DNA of 64,000 bases from Cenococcum geophilum (GCA_050273025.1 CP158635.1:11842001-11906000); one strand, 5' to 3'. Counted from the first letter of the stretch, positions 10,750-64,000 are shown. A program made the numbers and translations. Notes: generated by a model from the letters alone, not told the origin.

Positions 10750-12869
10750 CCTTTCACCACACATGCAACCTTACCAAAAGGTAGCGCCGCGCTTCAAAAC
10801 TTACGCATACCCATCTTACCACCAAAAACAATCAATTTTCCAACTTTCAAGACCCAATTCCTACTGCTTAGCGAGCTATAGGCGGATTTAATTGTCGTTT
10901 TACCCCCTTTCCCCCAACAGAAAATTCTTCTTAGGGGTAGTCCTAGCTTGTAAGCGAGGCACGGACAGGAACACTAAAACTACTACTACTACTACTACCA
11001 CCACCAATACTAGGGGTCTAGTATTACTACTACCTTTAAACCTAATCTCCCCAGAAATCCTCTAGTAGGATTAGTAAGGAAAAAGGGTATAAGGATAGTA
11101 AAAACTAGAAAACTCCCCCTATAAGATGCCAAGGCCTACTAGGCCTAAAAAGAAACCTCCTATAGAGACAAGTGACGACAACGAGTCTATAGGCGAAACC
11201 CCTATAGAAAGAAATGATAATAGGTTTCTATTTTTATCTTCTTTTCTTTCTCCTCCTAGCTTGTCTAAGAAGGGAGAGAAAAGAGAACATCCTTAAACTT
11301 CTCCTAAAAAAGAAAACTAAAAACCTGTAAAAAAGAAACCAATAACTACTACGGATGGCACACCTAGTACACCTATACCTTTTCCTCCCTTTTCTCCAGA
11401 ACAACACCTATAAAAAGCTCTAGAAAGCCTAACCTAGGCATATAAAGGGCTAGAAAAAGAAGAAGAAAAAGAATAAGTTAAATAGCTAGAGGACTATACA
11501 AGGAGTATCCTAGTAGGAGAAAACCCCTTTATAAAAGAAAAAGAAAAAGAAAAGATAAAAGATGTCCTAAAAGGACTAGTTAAAGAAGTAAGAGCTCTCT
11601 ATAAGGAGGTAGCCCCTACTAAAGAAACCTACGCAGAGAGGCTAAAGAAGGACCTCCCTACTTCGTCCTCTCTACCCTCCTTATTACTACCATTTCCTAC
11701 TTCTTCTACTTCTACTAGAAGTAAGAAAAAGCAGCTATAAGAAAGAAAGCTAGTCCTAATTATAGACCAAAAGGACCAACCTCTAGATACCTTCTCTATA
11801 CGAAATAAAGTTAATTAACTATTTGCATTAAAACTGCAAGTAGAAAAACCTGTTTTAGCATCTATAGCTAGAACTAAGGGAAAACAAAATATCCTCCTTA
11901 CGACTACGGAAGAGTATAATGCGGATTTTCTAGTTAAATATAAGGAAATCTGGCATAACTGCTTTACCTTTTAAAGAGAACAAAAACTAGAACTATGGGT
12001 TTAAATTATAGCCCATGGGGTTCCTACCCTACCTTTCCTAGGAGAAGGAGGCTCTAAGCTTCTAAAAGAAGAAATTAAGACCTTTAATCCTATAAGGTTA
12101 CAAGGATTACCTAGATGGATCTCATCTAGTGTAAAAAGACACGATCTATAGACCAGATTTGGCTCTATAGTTTTTACTATAGAGAACAAAGAAAAAAGAC
12201 AAGAAATCCTTAAGCAAAAAGAGATATCAATTGCAGGTACAGCTACTAAGGTAGTAAAATACCTCGAAGTCTCTCCTACTACGCAGTATACAAGCTGCCA
12301 AAAATTTGGCCATATAGGAGATAGGTGCTCTACTAGGGCCTACAGATACTATGCAGCTGCACATTTATCTAAAGACCATTCCTGTTCTACCTGTATAATA
12401 ACAGGCAGGCCTTGCTAGCATACCACCCCTCTTTGCATTAATTGTAAAGAAAAACACTTTGCTAATAGTAAAGACTGCAAGACTCTTAAAGCTGCTAAAC
12501 TAGTACGCGAAGAAGGTTCTATGGAAGAATAAATTAGATAGGATTCTAGAAGGGGGTAACTCCTACTAGGCTCTTAAAATGATATTAGAGAGCAAAAGGA
12601 CAGAAATAAATTGCAAAAGGACAGGGACAGGGGTTAGGATTTCTTATAGTTTTTTTTACCATTTTCTCATTCCCTAGTAGTTGTAGTATCTTAGTATTTT
12701 ACTAGGAAACTATAAACTCCTAATTTAGGAGTTTATAAACTACTAGGACATAGCTACTAGTATATATTAAGCTGCCTAGAAAGGATTTATGTATATAGAA
12801 CTATAGCGCCATAGCCCAAGGCTGCATGCGCAGTATTGTACGTAGTATAATACAATGGATAAAATATAT
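10750..12869 (+). mobile_element. ORF1-only non-LTR retroposon ('half-LINE') inserted in the LTR of B
   Basis: Flanked by the duplication atatatatatattaaccaa (10731-10749 and 12870-12888). Single gag-like ORF, no endonuclease/RT, ends in a (TA)n tail. Confidence 0.85.
11126..12532 (+). pseudogene. LINE ORF1/gag-like protein (468 codons) with three Cys/His knuckles
   Basis: One frame from ATG 11126 to TAA 12532; internal stops are TAA/TAG, consistent with RIPed Gln codons. Motifs WV(Q)IIAHGVP, EEIKTFNP, PRW, GSIVF and (C)TSCQKFGHIGDRC...CINCKEKHFANSKDC. Confidence 0.85.
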
Positions 12870-17694: not shown

Positions 17695-17950
17695 GGTGCG
17701 GCATACTGCTGTATTTAACAATGTAGTGCGGCATACTGCTATATTTAATAATGCAGTGCGGCATACTGCTGTATTTAATAATATAGTGCAGCTAATTACG
17801 CATTTTGCGCATTCTGTATATAATGCCCTTTTTACGCATTCTGTACATAATGCCCTTCTCACACATTCTGTATATAATGCCCTTCTTACGCATTCTGTAT
17901 ATAATGCCCTTTTTACACATTCTGTACATAATACCCTTCTTGCGCATTCT
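17695..17950. repeat. Two adjacent 30-bp minisatellites
   Basis: gtgcggcatactgctgtatttaacaatgta x3, then gcattctgtatataatgcccttyttac-type units x5. Confidence 0.9.
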
Positions 17951-18060
17951 ATATATCTTGCTTACTTTAAGCAATAAATAAGTATTACTCTTCCTACGCA
18001 GTTGGTGCAAAATAAATTATATTTTAGATAATTTAATATAATATAGCGACGGTTCTTTTC

Positions 18061-18086
18061 TACCTGCCTACCTACCGATTTACCTA

Positions 18087-18141
<55 letters not shown>

Positions 18142-18188
18142 ACCTGCCTACCTGCCTGCCTGCCTGCCTGCCTACCTACCTACCTACC

Positions 18189-18227
<39 letters not shown>

Positions 18228-18230
18228 ACC
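18061..18230. repeat. Compound tetranucleotide microsatellite (CCTG/CCTA/TCTG)n
   Basis: Directly visible; RIPed counterpart at ~35700-35920. Confidence 0.95.
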
Positions 18231-18565
18231 TACCCATCTATGCCTACCTGTCTGTGCCTACCTATCTATGTCACCTTGATTCGATCGATCGATCGAATCG
18301 TTTATCGTGTTCGCTGGCTGGTCGTTCGAACGGTTGTCGTGTGGCTCTGGCGACGGTCGTGTGACGATGACGACGGTCGTCTAGCTCTGGCGACGGTCAT
18401 CTGGCTCCGGCGACGGTCGTCTGCTGGCTGTCGTTCTGGTGTCTTCCTAGGTAGGGAGGATGTAAGGAAGGGTAAAAAATGAGGTGGCTACCTAGGTGTA
18501 TATAGGGGGTATACTTGGCAGAGGCACGTGTAGAGGCTATCGGGAATATAGTGGGGACCCGATGC

Positions 18566-18740
18566 GGAGCTTCGTGTAGAGCCTCGTGTAGAGCTTCGTG
18601 TAGAGCTTCGTGCAGAGCTTCGTGTAGAGCTTCGTGCAGAGCTTCGTGCAGAACTTCGTGTAGAGCTTTGCGCAGAACTTCGTGCAGAGCTTTGTGTAGA
18701 GCTTCGCGCAGAGCTTCAGAACTTTAAACTTTATGTAGAA
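18566..18740. repeat. 12-bp minisatellite (agagcttcgtgy)n
   Basis: Directly visible; longer RIPed counterpart at ~36345-36825. Confidence 0.95.
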
Positions 18741-19268
18741 CTTTAGGAAAAAATTACTAGCATCTAATTTTACTTTTCTGCCATTTTAGCATTTTCTAGC
18801 ATTTAGCAGCTAAATGCTAATACTTAATTATAAATGCGGCATTTGGCGCTAAATGCTAGAAAATGCTAGAAATGCTAGAAAATGCTAAAATGGCAGAAAA
18901 GTAAAATTAGATGCTAGTAAATTTTTTCCTAACGTAAAGAAGATTTTTAGTAGAAAGGTACTTTATAATGCGGCTTATAGCTAGTTCTTTACTAGCGTAG
19001 AACCTTACTTTATCTTTAGTTCCTCCGCTCTTCTTCCACTATAGCTTTTTATAATACCTTTATAATAGAACTAAAATAATAATAATAAAAATTAAATAGG
19101 ATTTACCTTTCTTATTATAAGAGTTTGTTATAAGTTAATCTAGAGGTTATCTTATATAACGCGTTTATAAGCCACTATCCCTATTACCTAAAATAGGTTC
19201 TAATAATAATGTCTTTATTTTAATTTCTTCTAGTTTATAAGCTATTGTCTCTTATATATCTTTTTATT

Positions 19269-19354
19269 GGCCGTCAAAAACGGACTCTATACCTGTATGT
19301 GGTAACGGCTACAAACCTAAGTCTTCGAAGTTTAGACTCAGAGCTAACGCAGAG
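19269..19354 (+). ncRNA. HDV-like (delta-like) self-cleaving ribozyme at the retroposon 5' end
   Basis: P1 GGCCGTC/(G)ACGGCT with G1-U wobble; P2 CTCT(GC)/GCAGAG; P3 ACC/GGT; 7-nt L3 TGTATGT; P1.1 GT/AC; P4 CT(G)AGTCT/AGACTCAG; J4/2 AGCTAAC. All four mismatches are RIP-type transitions. Confidence 0.85.
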
Positions 19355-20277
19355 ACGTTGCACAGCATGCGATACGACCTAGTAGTGGTGGTTATAGGTA
19401 TTGTAGGCGGTGGTAAAAAGTTTTTATATAGGATAGTAAGATCTTAAAAATAACCACTAAGTGCCCCTTACAGCAATAATAATAACACTATTCTCCTATT
19501 AAGGCACCTATACAATCTAATATAGATGCGCGGCATTCAATAACATCCCCTAACCCCTAGTAGAGAGTATTAACGACCTCTTATATTAACAAACGAGCGA
19601 TTATAAACGAGCAACGAGCAAATATACGGCCCCTCTTAACCCCTAGGGCAATCGCCCGCGGAGTATGCGGTTACTTACCATTAACTATTAAATACTACCT
19701 AGCAGCTTAGATAACACCGTATAGTTTTCCTATCTCCTCTTAAGGAGTAGTAACCCTTGGCGAGGGCCTAGTGACTAGGGCCTAGGCATAAAAGATACTC
19801 AGGCACACACATCCCGCTCGCCTTTTAGTATAGTGGTTTATAGATAAATCCCCCTTACGCCTTTAATAGGCCTTAGGGGGGGGGGAGGCATGGTATATAT
19901 AGTAATAGTTAACAAGAGATAGTATATAGGGGGTGGTTAAAATACGGAATATAACTATAAGTATACAGCAATCAAACGGCAAGGCCTAGCTAGGACGTAG
20001 TGAACCCTAGCTAGAATAAGCTAGAGAAGGAAGTAGTGGTTCCTAAGGAGTTTAAACATTTAAGGAGGACAGGACGTAGCCGTAGGCCCGTAGGGCCGCC
20101 GCTACGGACAAATATAGCAAACCAGGGTTTTTCATCCTACTGAGGTGGCTTATAGGGTTTTTCCTCCCCCAAACTGCAGGGGTTTCTTCCTGTAAATTAT
20201 AAGTTTTCCCCCTATGACGGAGTAGTCTGCGTGGGCCTAGATAGGATCCGTATCAGACGTTAATTAAGAATTACTAC
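19269..20277 (+). mobile_element. Non-coding non-LTR retroposon (SINE/SIDE-like, 1009 bp)
   Basis: 14 bp TSD tatatctttttatt (19255-19268 and 20278-20291); D1 shows the empty site. 3' end ...ccgtatcagacgttaattaagaattactac has a TAC tail like fungal Tad1-clade LINEs. No ORF. Confidence 0.88.
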
Positions 20278-21398
20278 TATATCTTTTTATTAATAACACT
20301 ATTCGTCTTATCTCTTAGCAGACTGTTTTTACTATATCTTAGCTTTTAGCTTCCGTATCTCTAGCTATTCTTTTATAGCTGCTTTATTCTTATTTTATAA
20401 TACGTTTATAAGTAATAGGATTCCTATTTTATCTCCATTAATAATGCTAACTTCCCGTAATATTCTCTTATAATATTTTATAGTTGTACTACATATCCCC
20501 TAACCAGCGGCGGTGTTATTTTAGTACCACTTTAGACCACCTCTATTGCTCCTACGGTAATCTCTCTAAAGTACTGCCGTTATTGCGTTTACGCGCTTAT
20601 ACTAGACCTGTCCTACGCTTATAAGATATCTTATTCCAATAAAAATAAATCTAAGTATTGTGGTGGTGTGATTTGGCCCCTAGATTTAATATCTAGATTA
20701 GGTATAGCTTTGGGAGAGCCTAGGCCCTCCATAAGTTATATAGATCGGTCTAGAGCCTATAGAGTCTTTAACAACTCGAACAGGCTTAAGGGACACAGAA
20801 TATACTCTTTTCTTCTCTTCTTACTAACTGCTTTCCTACTAATTTCCACTAACTAACTACGACTAACCGACCGACCTAATAGCACTATAACTTCCTTTCT
20901 AAGAGAGACTGCGTATACTACTATATATAGTATTCCACATAGGGACGACGGCAAGCTCTTTAGATTAGAAGTCTAGCGCTATATATATAAAAAACGTATA
21001 GGAACGTGTTACAACTACAGAAGGACTAAAAACTATTAAGTCACCATTACCGGAAGCCGTTAAGTCACTAATAGGTGCGGAAATTAAGCATAGAACTACT
21101 AGCAACGTACGCGTAGGCACTACTATTATTAAGATAAGTTAATAATACTTTTGGAGATTGTTATTTAAGACCTATAGTAGACGGAATAAATAACTAGGAG
21201 TGGGAATGTAAGTATGGGGTACGGCAGGACGGAGGATAAAAGAGAGGGTTATAATACATTAGGACTAGTAGAAAGAAGTCTTAAATTTTTTATTTACTAT
21301 ATTTATAATAGTCTATATAATTCTTCTAGCATTTATATAAGCCTCCCTTAAATTTATAAGAGTAATAGCAATAGGACCAATAAAGGGAATACTAGGGA

Positions 21399-35594: not shown

Positions 35595-36830
35595 CTTACT
35601 TTAAGTCAAAAGTATTGCTCTTCCTACGCAGTTAGTGTAAAATAAATTATATTATTTTAGATAATTTAATATAATATAGCGATGGTTCTTTTTTACTTAC
35701 CTACCTATTAACCTACTCACCCACCTACCTACCTACCTACTTACCTATCTACCTACCTACCTATCTACCTACCTACCTACCTATCTGCCTACCTACCTAT
35801 CTATTTATCTATCTGTCTGTTTATACCTACCTATACCTACCTATTTATAACTACTATCTATACCTACCTATCTGTACCTTCTGTCTATACCTACTGTCTA
35901 TATTTACCTATTTATGCCTACCTATTTATAATTTAGGGGAAGGGCCGGCCTAATTAAAGGCTCTGCCTAATTTAATTAATTAATTAATTATTTTAATTTA
36001 AATCGTTCTCTACGGCCGTTTGCTAGCTGTATATTTAAACGGTAGTTATCTAGGGTGCCTCCCTAGGAGGCCTTAATTTGATTTAGTGATAGGCTAATAT
36101 TAAAGCTCTAGCTTAATTCAATTAATCGATTAATTGGGTCGTTCGCGGCGTTCGCTAGCTGGTTATTTAAACGGTAATCGTCTAGTTCTAGTAATAGTCC
36201 TCTACTAGCTGCCGTTCTAGTACCTTTTTAGGTAGGGAGGATGTAAGGAAAGAAGGAAGGGTAAAAAATAAGGTGGCTATATAGGGGTATACTTAGTAGA
36301 GGTATATGTAGAGGCTATTAGGAATATAGTAGGGACCTAATACGGAGCTTCGTGTAGAGCCTCCGTACGTAGAGCTTTGTATAGAGCCTCCATATATAAA
36401 GCTTTGCGTAAAGCCTTATACAGAGCCTTTGTACGTAGAGCTTTATATAAAGCCTTATATAGAGCCTTATATAGAGCTTTATATAAGAGCTTTATATAGA
36501 GCTTTATATAGAGCTTCGTATAGAGCTTTATGCAGAGCTTTATATAGAGCTTCGTATAAAACTTTGTACAGAACTTTATATAGAACTTCGTGCGAAGCTT
36601 CGTGTAGAGCTTTGTATAGAACTTCGTGTAGAACTTTATGCGGAGCTTTGTGTAGAGCTTTGTGTAAAACTTTATATAGAACTTCGTATAGAGCTTTGTG
36701 TAGAGCTTTGTGTAAAACTTTATATAAAACTTCGTGTAGAGTTTTATGTAGAGCTTTGTGTAGAACTTCGTGCAGAACTTTGTGTAGAACTTTATATAGA
36801 GCTTTATATAGAGCTTTATACGGAACTAGC
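35595..36830. repeat. Repeat block (unique linker, CCTA microsatellite, 12-bp minisatellite) homologous to the cargo of the TIR element at 17961-18745
   Basis: agtattrctcttcctacgcagtt...ggtagggaggatgtaaggaa...ggagcttcgtgtagagcc occur in the same order at both loci. Confidence 0.9.
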
Positions 36831-39891: not shown

Positions 39892-41686
39892 TATCACGGG
39901 ACTCACACGCTCTCACGTCCCTGCGCGTTTTAACATTCTTAACCCGTGCTTACATTCGTCCCAAGATACCTACGCACGTTCCCCTATAACCCCTATTTAT
40001 ACCCGACCTGGTATATAAAGAATCTTCTTCTTTATCCAAATGTCTTTATATCAACCACGCATAGTTACGCGTACGTAGCCTTCTTTAATTACTACCCTGT
40101 TTAGTACATTGTATTCCAGCTTATACCCACTTCCGTAACACTATATTTAGATCCCTTTTTAACGTACCTAGCGGGCCTGTGGGCTACTAGTCGCGGAGCA
40201 TGCCTTTTTACGCCTATGGGGTAGATACAGGAGCTGCTGGCTACGGGTAGACTAGGACGCTAGGGTTCTGAACTGGTACGACAAGTCTCCGCGCCAATTT
40301 GCATACGGACCCGATAACAAGACACCACGCCAATACGCCTGCGACCTCGATGGCTTGCACCCTACTACTACCGCTTACAAACAGGCACGTTACTACCCCT
40401 CAGTTTAACCTAATAGCTCGCATCCTACTGCTACACAAACACAAACACGAACACGGAAGCTAGTATCTTACTACTGTCCTACCGACCTGCACGCACTACC
40501 CTACGTACCGACAAGACTTTGCGCTGCTACGCCTGCAAAATAAACCTAATAACCTATTATGCCGATAAGCCTACAACCTAACCCGAATACGACTAGGTAG
40601 AGCCTCGCTCCCTAGACCCCCGAACCCGTCGCTTATATTATACTACTGCCTAAACCAACAAGCCTCGTGCCGATACGCCTACGAGCCGAACACAACTAGG
40701 TAGAGCCTCGCTCCCTAGACCCCTAAACCCGTCGCTTGCATCGTACTACTACCTAAACCAACAAGCCTCGTGCCGATACGCCTACAAGATGCCCCATTGC
40801 TGGCACCGTACTACTACCATATAAACTAATAAGCTCCGTGCCGATTCGCCTACGGAACCTAAACACGTCGCTAGCACCGTACTGCTACCCAAATCTAATA
40901 AGATCCTGTGCCGATATGCCTACGGAACCTACGCTGGCACTATACTACCACCGACAAGAACCTACCTATAATACGAATACTGCACTATACTAATAAGAAC
41001 CTGCCAAGAATATGCCTTACTACGACCACAAACACCGTACTAACCGTACTATACTGCCGTTTAGGCCGATAAATACTACCTAAAACGCCCATTTTGGACC
41101 AAAAATTAGGGTAATTTTTTAGGGGGACCTAGAGTATAGGAAGGGAAGGCTATAGAGCTGCTAGAAGTAAGAAAGGGACTATATAAGCTTTAGCAATGCG
41201 TCTCTAAGCGGCGAGGATAGGAGTATAGCTGGCGATAGAAGCTGGGCTATGCTTTAGGCCTAACAAGTTAGTGGCCTAACGATTAAATATAGAAGGACCG
41301 AACTAGAGGAGCCTGTATAACGGAGGACGTAAAAGGGCGAAGAAGGCTAACAAATTTTTTTTTTCCCGTATTAGGTTTTTTTCTGGTATATATAACACGA
41401 CATGCCTCGCAGGAGCTCGGAAGTAAGGGGGGGGTACTGTCACGGGACTCACACGCTCTTACGTCCCTGCGTATTTTAACGTTCTTAACCCATACTTACG
41501 TTCGTCCCGAGACACCTACGCACGTTCCCCTATAACCTCTATTTATACCCGACCTGGCACATAAAGAATCTTCTTCTTTATCCAAATGTCTTTATATTAA
41601 CCACGCATAGTTACGCGTACATAGCCTTCTTCAATTACTACCCTATTTAGTACATTGTATTCCAGCTCGTGCCTACTTCCGTAACA
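39892..41686 (+). mobile_element. Non-autonomous LTR element H (TRIM/LARD-like, 1795 bp) inserted in F pol
   Basis: 249 bp LTRs at 39892-40140 and 41438-41686, TSD agtaa, G-rich PPT ending ggggtac. Non-coding interior with tandem repeats. Confidence 0.92.
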
Positions 41687-44600
41687 AGTAATATATAATA
41701 TATAGGTAACTTACTAGGTTATTATAGGGGACTATAGCCTAGGCTAAGGGGTCTTCCCTAGGGTTAAGCGCTATTAGGTTAATTAAAGTAGTTTTAAAAA
41801 GAATAATAGGATGCTCTAGTCCGCCAGCGCTAAGTTTATAAAAGTCGCTTATATACTACACGCATGCTACTCGCTAGTTTAGTATAGTAGCACTAGGGCC
41901 GCCTATAAGGCCTATAACCCGCAACTTTTACTATAATATAGGCAGTATAGTATTAAGGACCATCCTTTTACTGCTATTTTTAAAGCCTTTAGTATAATCC
42001 GGGCGCCAGGATAGTATATTAGCAGGATTTATCTTACCTAGCTTATATTTAATCTTAAAATTAAATTTAGCTAGTTTTTTAGCGTATTGGGCTTAGTAAG
42101 TAAATAAGCTCTTAGTGGTTATAAAGTACCTAAGATTATTATAATCGCAGAGCACACGCGTTATATACGCGGCGTGTTTAAGGTAATAGCGCTATATTTT
42201 AAAGCATTACACTAAAGCGAGTAGCTTTTTGTTATACGTATTATACTATACTTCTAGGATAGTAAGCTTTTAACTATAATAAGCAATCGGGTACTAGTAA
42301 AGTTAATCTTCCTACCCTAAAGGCTATAGAAGTATACCGCCATAGGCATAATTAAAAGCGTTAGTAATTACTATTAGGGGTAAATTAGGGTTAAAATGGC
42401 GAAGTAGAGGAGCCTATATAAATATAGCGCGTAGCTTATAGAACGCCTACTATACGTTATCAAGCTAGGACCAAGGCTAATACCATTTAGTAGGCCCTTT
42501 TAACTTACGCTTCTTCTTCTTCTCCCTATCTAACGTTAGGTCGCGATATACCTATATAAGAGATATATATAGGGGGTATATAGTATCTAAGTAGTTCTAG
42601 ATAAATCGCCTATAAAAGTTAGCAAAGCTAAGGAAGACCTAGATGTCCCTATAGAACTTAGGCTTAGGCTATTCCTTAATAGCTTTTACGCGGTTAGGGT
42701 CTATTATAATACCCCTAGGAGTAATAATAAAGCCTAGGAACTCAACATTGTTAGTATAAAAGATGCATTTTAATAGTTTGGCGTATAGGCCCTAAGCGCG
42801 AAGCTGTTACAGTACCTGCTTAACGTGCTTAACGTACTTATCCTTATCATTTAAGTAAATAAAATATTATCTAGGTAAACTATATAGATAGTATCTACTA
42901 GGGTTTCTAAAGCTTTATAAATATAACTCTAGAAAGTTATAGGGGCGTTAGTAAGACTAAAGGGTATTACTAGGTACTTAAAGTAACTATAGCGTGTTTT
43001 AAATGCAGTCTTCTATTTATCTCCCTTTTTAATATAAATCCTATAGTACGTATTATAAAGATCTAGCTTTATAAATATCTTTATATAGCTAAGCCTATTA
43101 AAAAGCTCGCCGACTAGCGGTAAGGGGTACCGATTTTTAGTTATAATCTTATTTAGGCGTCTATAGTCAATATATAGCCGTATTATACTATCTGCTTTTA
43201 GTATAAAGAGGATAGGCGCTTTAGTAGGCGACTTACTAGGCCTAATTTAGCCCCTTTTAAGAGCACTATCTAGGTACTCTTATAAGATCTATAACTCTTT
43301 CTATAAGAGGTTATAGAGGGGCATTTACGGTAGCGTTTTACCTTCTTTTAAGTTAATCGCATGGTTATACTTAGAGTTCTATAGTAGTATACTTACTAGC
43401 TTATTAAAGAAAACATTAATTTCCTTTTTATATACCTTTAGTAGGCTAGGGGCCATAGAGGTTAAAGTAACTATTATATAGTAGTGTGCTTCCGGGAGCT
43501 AGTAGAGAAAAGGGTATAGCCGGCATACGTTTTATAGGTATGCTTATACTAAAAGTGTATATAGCTCTACTATAGTATACTTAATAGTTTTAGGGTTTTA
43601 ATTACCTCCCCCTTGCGTATAGGTAATCTGCGTTAGCACTAAAGGGTCTCTATAAATACTCGCTGCTAGTAACGGTAGGTCCTCTACTATATTTATAACC
43701 GGTGTCTCTACGTCCGGAGGGTCTATATAGGTACTAACTACTAGTAATAATAGGTCCTCTATTATATTTATAACCGGCGTAAAAAAGAAGTCTTTTAGCT
43801 ATAGCGAATAAACTATTTCGCTAGCCTTAATATCTGCTAGGAAAGTATTAAGGGGAACTATCTAGAGGCGTTTAGGGTCTAAAGTACCCTAGATAAACTA
43901 TCTAGAACGGAAGCTAATTAATAGATCTACTTTCGCGAGCTAATCCTATGTAAAAACTATATTATAACTATTAAATAAGCCGCCCTAAAAGGTCTGCGGA
44001 CTAATAGTATAAGAGGTACCCTAGGAGTTGCTAGTAGTAACTATTAGATTATAAGCATCCCAGATTATTATCTAGTTATTATTAAGGAAATATATAATAG
44101 GTTTACGTAAATATAGCGCGTAGCGTATAGGCAGGTTAAACCTATAGATAATATCTTAATTAATAAGGTTAATTTAGTACCTATTATTATATAAAGTATA
44201 TAGGCGGACTTTACCCTAGGGCGTATCTATTACAACGTATACTATAATATATTCCTTTTCTCCCTCTATATTAGGCCCTAGTTACAGTTAAAAGAGATAC
44301 GCTACTAGGGCTTTAGGTTTTCTAAAGCCCGAGCTAACTTCTCCTTATTAGCCTACTTCTAGTATTCCTTATAGTGGCCACCTATAGTCCTTTAACTCGC
44401 CTATATAGTACTGGCGTTTAGGGGGTCCCCTAAGCTATCTAGCTTTTAGGTAATCTTCCTAAGAGTTTACTTAAAAAAGCGTTGCCCTTTTTAGGTTCTA
44501 TTCCCTAAGCCTAACTCTATAAAGCCTATACTGCGACCGCGCTTTATATACAATAATTTTCCGCTACTACTTACGCGATCTTCCGCGAGCTTTATAGTAT

Positions 44601-62300: not shown

Positions 62301-64000
62301 CAATTAAAGCTATATTAGAAGCTTTAATAATACTACTAGCCAATATTGCAACTACCTACCTATACAAAGGCAAGCTACTAGAATGCTATAAAGCAACAAC
62401 TACAGTTATCCTACGAAAGGTAAATAAAAAGGACTACTCTCTACTAGGAAGCTACCGACTAATCGCCCTTAAAAACACGTTAGGAAAGCTCCTAGAAAAA
62501 ATAGTTATAGAGCGTATATAAGAAACCGTAGAAGTATATAAGCTACTACTATAGATATAAATAGGCGCAAGGAAGAAGCGATTAACCCTATTAGCCATCT
62601 CCCTAATTACTTTTAGCGTCCAGGCAGCGTGGCAAGCTAGGCCAGGCTATATAGTATCTATACTAAGCCTAGACATAAGCGGAGCCTTTAACCATATATC
62701 GCACGAGAGGCTCCTATAAATCCTAAGAAAGAAGGGCCTCCTAAAATAGATAATTAAGTTTACCTAATCCTTCTTAATAGGGCGCAATACTAAAATGGTA
62801 TTCGGGGGATATAAAAGTGAAACAATACCAATATACACAGGAATTCTATAGGGATCACCCCTATCGCTAATCCTGTTCCTATTCTTTATATCTAAGCTAC
62901 TAAAGACATTTAACAACGACCAGAAAATAGTAGCCCTAGGCTTTATAGACGACACAAACCTTATTATATAGGGAAACACAGTAGTAGAAAACTGCACTAG
63001 GCTAAATCAGGCATATAATAGGTGCGTTATATAGGCAAAACGACATAGTGCCAAATTTGCACCAGATAAATACTAGCTTATCTATTTTATAAGGAAAAGG
63101 AGGGTAAACGATAACCTAGTGTTAACGGTAAGTATCTAGGGATGCGAAGCAAAGCTAAAAGCCACACTTAAGGTCCTAAGGGTCTAGGTGGATACTAAAC
63201 TAAACTAGAATATACATATTATAAAGACGACCACTAGGGGTGCAGTAGCATTCGCAGTAGCATTATGAATTACAGCCTTAACCTAGGGACTATTATTTAG
63301 ACGTACACGACTACTATACACAGTAGTAGTAAGACTAACAATGCTATACGGAGCCTAGATTTGGGGCCTCGGACTAAACGGCAAGCTAATAGTAAAAAGC
63401 TCCCTAGCGCCACTAGAAAAACTATAGAACTAATGCCTACGTAAAATTATAGGAGCCTATAAGCGGATACCATATGCCGCAATAGAACGCGAAGCAGCAG
63501 TACTACTACTTAATGTCTATATAGATATAACTGCTATATAAAGAGCAGCCACAGTATAAGGACACCTAGTAGAGAAAGATATATACTAAGTACTAAAACG
63601 TATACGCGAAGTAAGGCCTTACTAGAGAGGAGTAAGGTCCTACTAGAGGCGTAACGCGCCTAAGTATATAAGCTAGGAGGCCCTACGCCTATAAGCAGTA
63701 GAGAGAGAATAAGAAATATGGGAGCTACTATAACACCAAGTAGAGACCCAGCGCCACGCTGGTAGAGTACTACTACGGCAATAGAGGATAGGAGGCTACT
63801 AATATAGGTGGAGATTAACTATATATATCGCAAGATAGGCAAATATAGAGTAGAAGCGACGCTAGAAGAAGGCGGTAAAGACATAAAGAGCAGCCACGTA
63901 GAACACCCTATAGATAATACTGACTCTCCCCCTATATAAAGGATAGACGAAGGCAGAATCTACGGCTGGCTTTCTATTACGGATAGAGGTAATAGGGCTA
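59325..64000 (+). mobile_element. Tad1-type LINE (ORF1 ~59436-60932, ORF2 ~60929 to window end), RIP-inactivated
   Basis: ORF1 with three Cys/His knuckles ~60410-60580. ORF2 APE endonuclease V(Q)YNCG, LGDFN ~61331; RT LDISGAF(D) ~62670, GI(PQ)GSPLS, F(V)DD ~62942. Confidence 0.95.

Follow-up and report, generated by a model that had tools for sequence, protein, structure and literature searches.

The window analysed here, that is, the whole 64-kb stretch of DNA, is AT-rich overall and made up of RIP-like repeat debris. On its + strand it holds a 1009-bp insert (19269–20277, read from the sequence of 18900–20700) that is flanked by a perfect direct repeat, tatatctttttatt, and has a G+C content of 43% vs. 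27–35% in its surroundings. The features of this element, including the parts of a predicted HDV-like ribozyme fold at its 5′ end, are as follows.

19255–19268, no strand: left target-site duplication (TSD), 14 bp, tatatctttttatt, identical to 20278–20291 at 14/14 positions
19269–20277, + strand: non-coding, non-autonomous non-LTR retroposon, a RIP-mutated copy, colinear with nine complete metagenome copies
19269–19354, + strand: predicted HDV-like ribozyme fold, element nt 1–86, degraded here
19269–19275, + strand: P1 5′ strand, pairing with 19304–19310; predicted cleavage immediately 5′ of G19269
19276–19284, + strand: J1/2, 9 nt; in MFE folds an alternative 4-bp hairpin is possible between nt 3–6 (P1) and nt 12–15
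19285–19290, + strand: P2 5′ strand; RIP has turned G and C into A19289 and T19290
19291–19293, + strand: P3 5′ strand, pairing with 19301–19303; 97.2% of cells paired
19294–19300, + strand: L3, tgtatgt here and TGTACGT in the family consensus; includes the P1.1 5′ strand (19295–96)
19301–19303, + strand: P3 3′ strand, pairing with 19291–19293
19304–19310, + strand: P1 3′ strand; A19304 derives from G by RIP
19311–19312, + strand: P1.1 3′ strand (A-C); U-A kept in 12/12 copies, G-C in 9/12
19317–19341, + strand: P4 hairpin, 8 positions and a 9-nt loop; A19319 and C19339 unpaired
19342–19348, + strand: J4/2 with candidate catalytic C19344; agctaac here, AGCCAAC in the consensus
19349–19354, + strand: P2 3′ strand, pairing with 19285–19290
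19421–19425, + strand: T5 run in the sense strand, ~nt 153; T5–T7 in 8/10 copies
20128–20132 and 20158–20162, + strand: T5 runs in the sense strand, ~nt 860 and 890; T5–T7 in 10/10 copies
20272–20277, + strand: 3′ tail TACTAC, just before the right TSD
20278–20291, no strand: right TSD, matching the left TSD at 14/14 positions

The element ends at 20277 with ...GAATTACTAC (...gaatTACTAC). The preliminary description of this DNA had proposed a 1-kb non-coding retroposon with a TAC-tailed 3′ end, and this agrees with the length of 1009 bp, the TSDs, the TACTAC terminus and the lack of any frame longer than 117 aa. The longest open frame does not exceed 95 aa in each of ten copies, whereas a script-built de-RIPed consensus has longest frames of 117 aa (antisense) and 108 aa (sense), and a Pfam search with three real frames of the element returned no match. 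Because the frames are short and Pfam matches are absent, the element is non-autonomous and effectively non-coding, though a small ORF is possible. Its boundaries are confirmed by contigs of paralogous empty sites, which run from 19268 directly to sequence beyond the right TSD (run X5, 19268 to 20326). The joints 19256 to 20289 and 19268 to 20326 represent paralogous copies of the flank without the insert, and the flanks themselves (18769–19268 and 20292–20777) belong to a high-copy RIP-mutated repeat to which thousands of contig pieces align. The element, too, is RIP-mutated, with a TpA/ApT index of 1.79 and a (CpA+TpG)/(ApC+GpT) index of 0.59. TpA/ApT ranges from 1.56 to 1.80 across copies and the RIP signature is found in every one of them, and the host is apparently a RIP-competent filamentous fungus, a view based on this dinucleotide bias and on the labels of the sequencing runs. 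A blastn search of the window with the element returned no further copy, even in part; the best other match was 21 nt long.

The first base after the left TSD, G19269, is at the same time base 1 of the predicted fold, as can be read straight from the sequence. The order of strands is that of the HDV nested double pseudoknot, with zero-length connectors between P2 and P3, P3 and P1, and P1 and P1.1, and the pairings proposed in the preliminary description are present at these coordinates with the exception of three non-pairs and one wobble. P1 forms six of its seven pairs, with the G19269.T19310 wobble at its base and C19275 and A19304 unpaired; P2 has four Watson-Crick pairs and a T19290.G19349 wobble, with A19289 opposite C19350 unpaired; all three pairs of P3 are present; and P4 (19317–24/19334–41) forms seven of eight. 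P1.1 consists of G19295-C19312 and T19296-A19311, L3 carries U as its first and G as its sixth nucleotide, and C19344 lies 5 nt upstream of the P2 3′ strand. Three of the seven transitions in these 86 nt break or weaken P1 and P2, and the copy in the window is therefore probably catalytically dead.

Taken alone, the window copy is weak evidence for a ribozyme. A search of the whole window against Rfam at gathering thresholds gave nothing relevant, and a search of 19150–19500 down to an E value of 10 gave no HDV-type match; weak matches to Dicty_Class_I (E 0.44), TMV_UPD-PK1, SIB_RNA and TB6Cs1H1 were judged to be noise. The nested minimum free energy structure of 19269–19354 leaves P1 unused and is unexceptional (z −0.17, with 72 of 200 shuffles equal or better). 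We described the fold by a strict descriptor (P1 of 7 bp, P2 of 6 bp, P3 of 3 bp, L3 of 6–9 nt, two Watson-Crick P1.1 pairs, an 8-position P4, and a C located 4–6 nt before P2), which at the stringency of the window copy, i.e., with one mismatch each allowed in P1, P2, and P4, finds ~15 starts on the + strand and ~20 on the − strand of the 64-kb window. With ~35 starts in 128 kb, or ~3 × 10−4 per position, folds of this quality are not rare in the window, and the one notable point is that this fold starts at the first base after the TSD. These observations would all be expected if the fold were a chance look-alike drawn by eye on the 5′ end of an ordinary retroposon. Minisatellites lie just upstream of the element (17696–18717) and comprise (CCTG)35, 13 units of the 12-mer TGCAGAGCTTCG, and 27–30-mers. 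A RIP-like version of the 12-mer, TAGAGCTTTGTA, is repeated 37 times at 36370–36817, in a region (35694–36817) where spurious matches to the descriptor cluster.

Other copies of the element bear directly on whether the fold is accidental. Parts of the element occur in 20 of 24 public runs listed, which come from 14 studies, and pieces with at least 80% likeness to 18769–20777 were aligned from two sets of DNA contigs, one set of RNA-seq reads, and one set of metatranscriptome contigs (5543, 4452, 10250, and 696 pieces, respectively, counts that include the repeat flanks). A>G and T>C predominate among the differences; at such sites the window copy has A or T and other copies have G or C, as RIP would produce. 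Scanning metagenome contigs with a RIP-resistant 25-mer from P4 yielded 12 loci on 11 contigs. The preliminary description had held that copies extending upstream, or failing to preserve the pairings, would speak against a ribozyme. Neither was observed: in 12/12 metagenome loci similarity sets in precisely at G1, preceded by mutually unrelated sequences that represent different sites, and 95.5% of 312 pair cells are paired, vs. 27–42% when the partners are slid. Including the window copy, a full-length start at G1 is thus found in 13/13 copies. One of them, L002, has A at position 1; it ends at a contig edge and was left out of alignment A1.

Nine complete metagenome copies are colinear with the window element, measure 1007–1019 bp, and share 84–92% identity with it. 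In all nine, and in the window copy, TSDs of 13–18 bp abut G1 without extra bases; the duplications are perfect in nine of these ten copies, with one mismatch in L009. The tail comprises one to three TAC units before the TSD in 9/9 complete metagenome copies, namely a single unit in L006 (..GAATTAC) and two or three in the rest. Right after the ...TAC tail, 8/10 TSDs of the window copy and L001–L011 start in TA and the remaining two in CTA, pointing to microhomology of the RNA tail with a TA-rich nick site. We interpret the insert as one RIP-mutated copy of a high-copy, transcribed, ~1.0-kb non-coding non-LTR retroposon.

Where the window copy is damaged, the fold in the family is intact. The majority consensus of nt 1–86 forms P1 with 7/7 pairs including G1.U42, P2 with 6/6, P3 with 3/3, and P1.1 with G27-C44 and U28-A43, and it carries UGUACGU in L3 and AGCCAAC in J4/2; the eight positions of P4, which include A51/C71, form 7–8/8 pairs. 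The window copy differs from this consensus at seven positions (19276, 19289, 19290, 19298, 19304, 19313, and 19345), all of them transitions. From the window copy alone, its four mismatches had been attributed to transitions in a RIP context, and this attribution proved right for three. In alignment A1, position 19289 is G in 11/12 rows, 19290 is C in 10/12, and 19304 is G in 9/12, and RNA reads of run X22 agree almost without exception (G in 381/382, C in 381/382, and G in 417/419, respectively), so that transcribed copies carry the helix-restoring bases. Each of the three restores a Watson-Crick pair in P2 or P1, and they are the three in-fold sites among the 40 of 410 difference rows listed. 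The fourth mismatch is not what had been claimed: A19319 is invariant in 12/12 copies, and its partner at 19339 is C in six copies and T in six, giving an A-U pair in 6/12 copies and an unpaired A/C in the other six. Hallmarks of the HDV-like class are present. A purine at +1 closes P1 through G1.U42 in 12/12 aligned copies, the U and G of L3 are accompanied by a P1.1 of one or two base pairs (U28-A43 in 12/12, G27-C44 in 9/12), and the candidate catalytic C76 (19344) is invariant in 12/12.

The strict descriptor is satisfied without any mismatch by L001, L006, L011, and L012 and with one mismatch by L004. Applied to Markov-1 random sequence modelled on the copies (46% G+C; 6 Mb), it finds 1, 13, 122, and 350 starts with 0, 1, 2, and 3 mismatches, respectively. 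As a positive control, bacterial loci were fetched with a motif from the consensus line of Rfam family RF02682, and all 20 Clostridia loci tested are members of that family (50.9–87.2 bits). The start assigned by Rfam was recovered in 18/20 of these without a P4 term, in 17/20 with a 5-bp P4, and in 1/20 with an 8-bp P4; the two controls missed by the relaxed forms lack a G at +1. Since an 8-bp P4 is evidently too strict for the class, looser P4 terms were used to estimate chance matches again; with perfect P1 and P2 the relaxed descriptor finds 76 starts (no P4) or 41 starts (5-bp P4) in 6 Mb of random sequence. This corresponds to a chance of ~1 × 10−5 per position, at a position that the TSD determines beforehand. 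For the 22-letter core motif of RF02682, the number of matching stretches is at least 124; they come from Clostridia (Faecalibacterium, Blautia, Coprococcus, Dorea, and others) and also from Actinomycetota, Gemmatimonadota, and archaeal MAGs.

The search with HDV models that the preliminary description had recommended gave a mixed outcome, with nothing on the window copy and a leading but sub-threshold match on an intact one. For L006 the best of 4227 Rfam families is RF02682, the Faecalibacterium prausnitzii HDV ribozyme, with 14.7 bits (E 2.3 for 321 nt and 0.69 for 96 nt), which is far short of the gathering score of 44 and by itself would carry no weight; the HDV-like Rfam families other than RF02682 did not match L006. 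The covariance model leaves the pseudoknotted P2 and P1.1 unscored. The full model, positions 1–74, aligns to exactly nt 1–86 of L006, and the core CACCUGUACGUGGUGA agrees with the RF02682 consensus at 15/16 positions. The core differs only by C to G in L3, and since this is offset by a change of G to C after P1, P1.1 is kept. The compensatory change previously proposed for P1.1 needs qualifying: measured against the RF02682 consensus CU/AG, one pair is flipped and the other is not. We consider the match informative despite its score because the ends coincide, the core agrees at 15/16 positions, and the P1.1 change is compensated.

A chance look-alike would gain some support from the sub-threshold Rfam score and from the covariation analysis, in which only one pair of alignment A1 changed on both sides and 426 of 500 shuffles reached the observed score. 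The copies are ~90% identical, and covariation beyond shuffles is lacking, as expected for copies that are this alike and whose changes stem mainly from RIP after insertion. An accidental fold does not explain, however, why unmutated copies fit perfectly, why three of four blind predictions of ancestral bases were borne out, or why a fold with a chance of ~1 × 10−5 falls on a pre-fixed base and shares 15/16 core positions with RF02682. We therefore regard a coincidental resemblance as very unlikely.

A better signal of constraint than covariation comes from comparing subfamilies, which presumably reflects the master copies. L004 and L009 differ from the eight other complete copies by 95 fixed differences, only one of which falls within nt 1–86, where ~8 would be expected, and this one, C3>U, leaves the position paired as U.G. 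The region 19613–19784 (nt 345–516) is a further quiet block, with 4 fixed differences in 172 nt vs. ~16 expected, and may be another functional module of the element RNA, e.g., a promoter or protein-binding site. Folding energies are less distinctive. The nested MFE of an intact copy is −27.8 kcal/mol (z −2.1, with 7 of 200 shuffles equally good), a structure that contains P2 and P4 plus two alternative hairpins in place of P1 and P3, and the combination of P1, P3, and P4 evaluates to −20.8 kcal/mol. According to these models, the pseudoknot is plausible but would compete with alternative hairpins.

Low divergence between subfamilies would also be expected if nt 1–86 formed a structured but non-catalytic 5′ module, such as an internal promoter or a binding site for a partner protein, with initiation at G1. 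A uniform start at G1 fits any essential 5′ module, an internal promoter can likewise give a precise start, and the quiet block at nt 345–516 indicates that sequence outside the fold is conserved as well. For L1Tc, a single stretch of 77 nt (Pr77) is described as both promoter and ribozyme (PMC3383444). A module of this kind leaves unexplained why the complete HDV topology and its core nucleotides appear at a rate of ~1 × 10−5 per position and why the top Rfam family is an HDV ribozyme with matching ends, and a dual role as promoter and ribozyme would not exclude catalysis. We consider a purely non-catalytic module unlikely, though somewhat less so than a chance resemblance, and prefer the interpretation of nt 1–86 as a ribozyme.

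The family is transcribed. RNA-seq depth over bins of the element is 160–2100 with the first mate on the − strand and 3–99 on the + strand, and is zero in the adjacent flanks. By the usual library convention, which we assume for this library, the element RNA is apparently the sense strand. Ends of RNA fragments cluster at 19278, 19279, and 19280 (127, 87, and 79 molecules, with a depth beside them of 357–380), that is, 9–11 nt inside G1 and not at G1 itself. Random-primed libraries lose the last few 5′ bases, and an RNA whose 5′ end lies at G1 or close to it could give this cluster. Among the few loose-end rows listed, no read bridges from the upstream flank into G1.

If this element were a Pol III SINE, its 5′ end would simply be the Pol III start site; it is short and non-coding, and a TTCGA motif at ~nt 56–60 occupies the usual place of a B box. 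Nothing matching the A-box consensus is seen at nt 8–19, Rfam gives no match to tRNA, 5S, or 7SL, and the element is 1 kb long with sense-strand T5–T7 runs at ~nt 153 (8/10 copies) and at ~860 and 890 (10/10). The conservation of these runs, together with the absence of a tRNA, 5S, or 7SL match, argues against full-length transcription by Pol III, and we regard this explanation as the most improbable of those considered.

Two features of sequencing depth concern the relation of the element to others. In DNA runs, its 3′ quarter (19975–20242) has 5–30 times the summed contig depth of the 5′ part, and some contigs hold only ~20117–20264 inside longer unrelated sequence. This fits either many 5′-truncated copies or a 3′ module common to another element, e.g., a partner LINE. 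In X1, X5, and X15, contig depth in the bin 19305–19371, which covers most of the ribozyme, is 2–4 times that in the two bins that follow, a hint that the ribozyme module may also head other elements.

An autonomous partner, which the preliminary description takes to be of Tad1 type, was sought within the window itself. Tails of the form (TAC)n are associated with Tad1-type fungal LINEs. TACTACTAC sites are overrepresented in the window (15 vs. 4.2 expected, with 0 of 100 shuffles reaching 15) and include those at 10981–10998, 40363–40817, and 63501–63776, those near 40.6–40.9 kb lying inside 68- and 103-bp tandem repeats. No TAC-tailed LINE was found at these 15 sites; 10981–10998 was considered as a TAC tail and rejected as an internal (TAC)6(CAC)3 run. 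Likewise, a Pfam search of the 44 stop-to-stop frames of at least 70 aa in the window identified no LINE that could be paired with the element. The sole trace of a reverse transcriptase in the window is a 77-aa frame at 43016–43246 on the − strand with a weak match to RVT_1 (E 0.0015; 18.7 bits, under the cutoff of 29.6). A search of the literature on TAC-tailed fungal LINEs or SINEs found nothing relevant.

The uniform start at G1, the intact fold in other copies, and a chance of ~1 × 10−5 uphold the central proposal of the preliminary description, namely that an HDV-like ribozyme fold forms the exact 5′ end of a retroposon family. We estimate a probability of roughly 80% that a canonical HDV-like ribozyme defines the 5′ end of this non-autonomous non-LTR retroposon. 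Transcription would proceed either by read-through from upstream or from a promoter of the element's own, and would involve a polymerase that reads through runs of T5–7, hence presumably not Pol III. Judging from its fold, the nested double pseudoknot would then cut immediately 5′ of G1, removing the upstream sequence while the complete ribozyme stays with the element RNA. This RNA would be copied by a reverse transcriptase acting in trans, through target-primed reverse transcription starting from the (TAC)n tail at TA-rich nicks and giving rise to the duplications of 13–18 bp that are observed as insertion signatures. Each full-length new copy would therefore begin at G1 and carry its own ribozyme, a pattern seen in 13/13 copies.

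We propose more tentatively that this is the first documented fungal retroposon family with a canonical HDV-like 5′ end, and that the module is common to, or derived from, the autonomous LINE that mobilises it, possibly a member of the Tad1 clade; this extended proposal is possible but has somewhat less than even odds. If this is true, a major fungal LINE lineage would use ribozyme processing and not a promoter-defined start. The principle of a ribozyme-headed retroposon is already known and is not new here. The family is currently expressed and occurs in samples of soil and roots. An expressed high-copy retroposon that starts at a cleavage site would offer a concrete biological role for fungal HDV-like ribozymes. 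A ribozyme-defined start would also explain the uniform 5′ end of a promoter-less 1-kb element. Furthermore, RIP has mutated dozens of copies of one ribozyme and has thereby provided a ready mutational series.

LINEs headed by ribozymes, together with their non-autonomous derivatives, are established in insects, other metazoans, and trypanosomatids, and include R2 and its SIDEs, L1Tc and NARTc, RTE, and Baggins (PMC3414825, PMC3185411, PMC6765202). The accounts given in PMC13725137 and PMC6765202 describe such elements in metazoans, plants, and trypanosomatids only, and the introduction of the former, a 2026 paper, names plant and metazoan genomes only. For fungi, 230 variant and 11 canonical examples of HDV-class ribozymes are listed in PMC5640933, where their 'widely variable gene associations' are mentioned and a link to mobile elements is not stated in that account. 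Our literature search found no link between an HDV-like ribozyme and a fungal retroposon, which means that none was found rather than that none is in print.

The element resembles SIDEs and NARTc in that the first base of the ribozyme is the first base of the element, the upstream sequence differs from copy to copy, TSDs are present, and a reverse transcriptase gene is lacking. More fully, it combines TSDs, a defined 3′ tail, the lack of any RT/EN gene, and many dispersed copies (13 different sites), as is characteristic of such derivatives. It differs from the known ribozyme-headed elements in its apparently RIP-bearing fungal host and in its (TAC)n tail, as opposed to poly(A), and it differs from R2 in that its insertion is not site-specific.

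With respect to the ribozyme itself, the best Rfam match is RF02682. Both share an alignment over the full length of nt 1–86, a P3/L3/P1 core that agrees at 15/16 positions, and a U-A pair in P1.1; C76 aligns to the C of GC in the 'GCUAAG' of the model, and a C located 5 nt before P2 is found in 14 of the 18 recovered controls. The conserved U and G of L3, which form a reverse wobble, and P1.1 are general features of HDV-like ribozymes (PMC3774820, PMC3185411). Unlike RF02682, the element has a G.U pair at the cleavage site, compared with G-C in the 18 controls that start with G; its second P1.1 pair is G-C (G27-C44), compared with the usual C-G; its P4 has 8 bp, compared with ~5; and it is a eukaryotic mobile element, compared with a bacterial intergenic RNA. 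The fungal HDV variants described by Li and Breaker in 2017 (PMC5640933) share with it a fungal host and an HDV-class fold. According to that paper, the cleavage-site pair of the variants is C-G, their P4 contains a loop E, and one additional nucleotide separates P2 from P3; the element has G.U, a plain P4 (loop E as judged by eye), and contiguous P2 and P3. Since all three features of the fungal variants are absent, the fold is of the canonical type.
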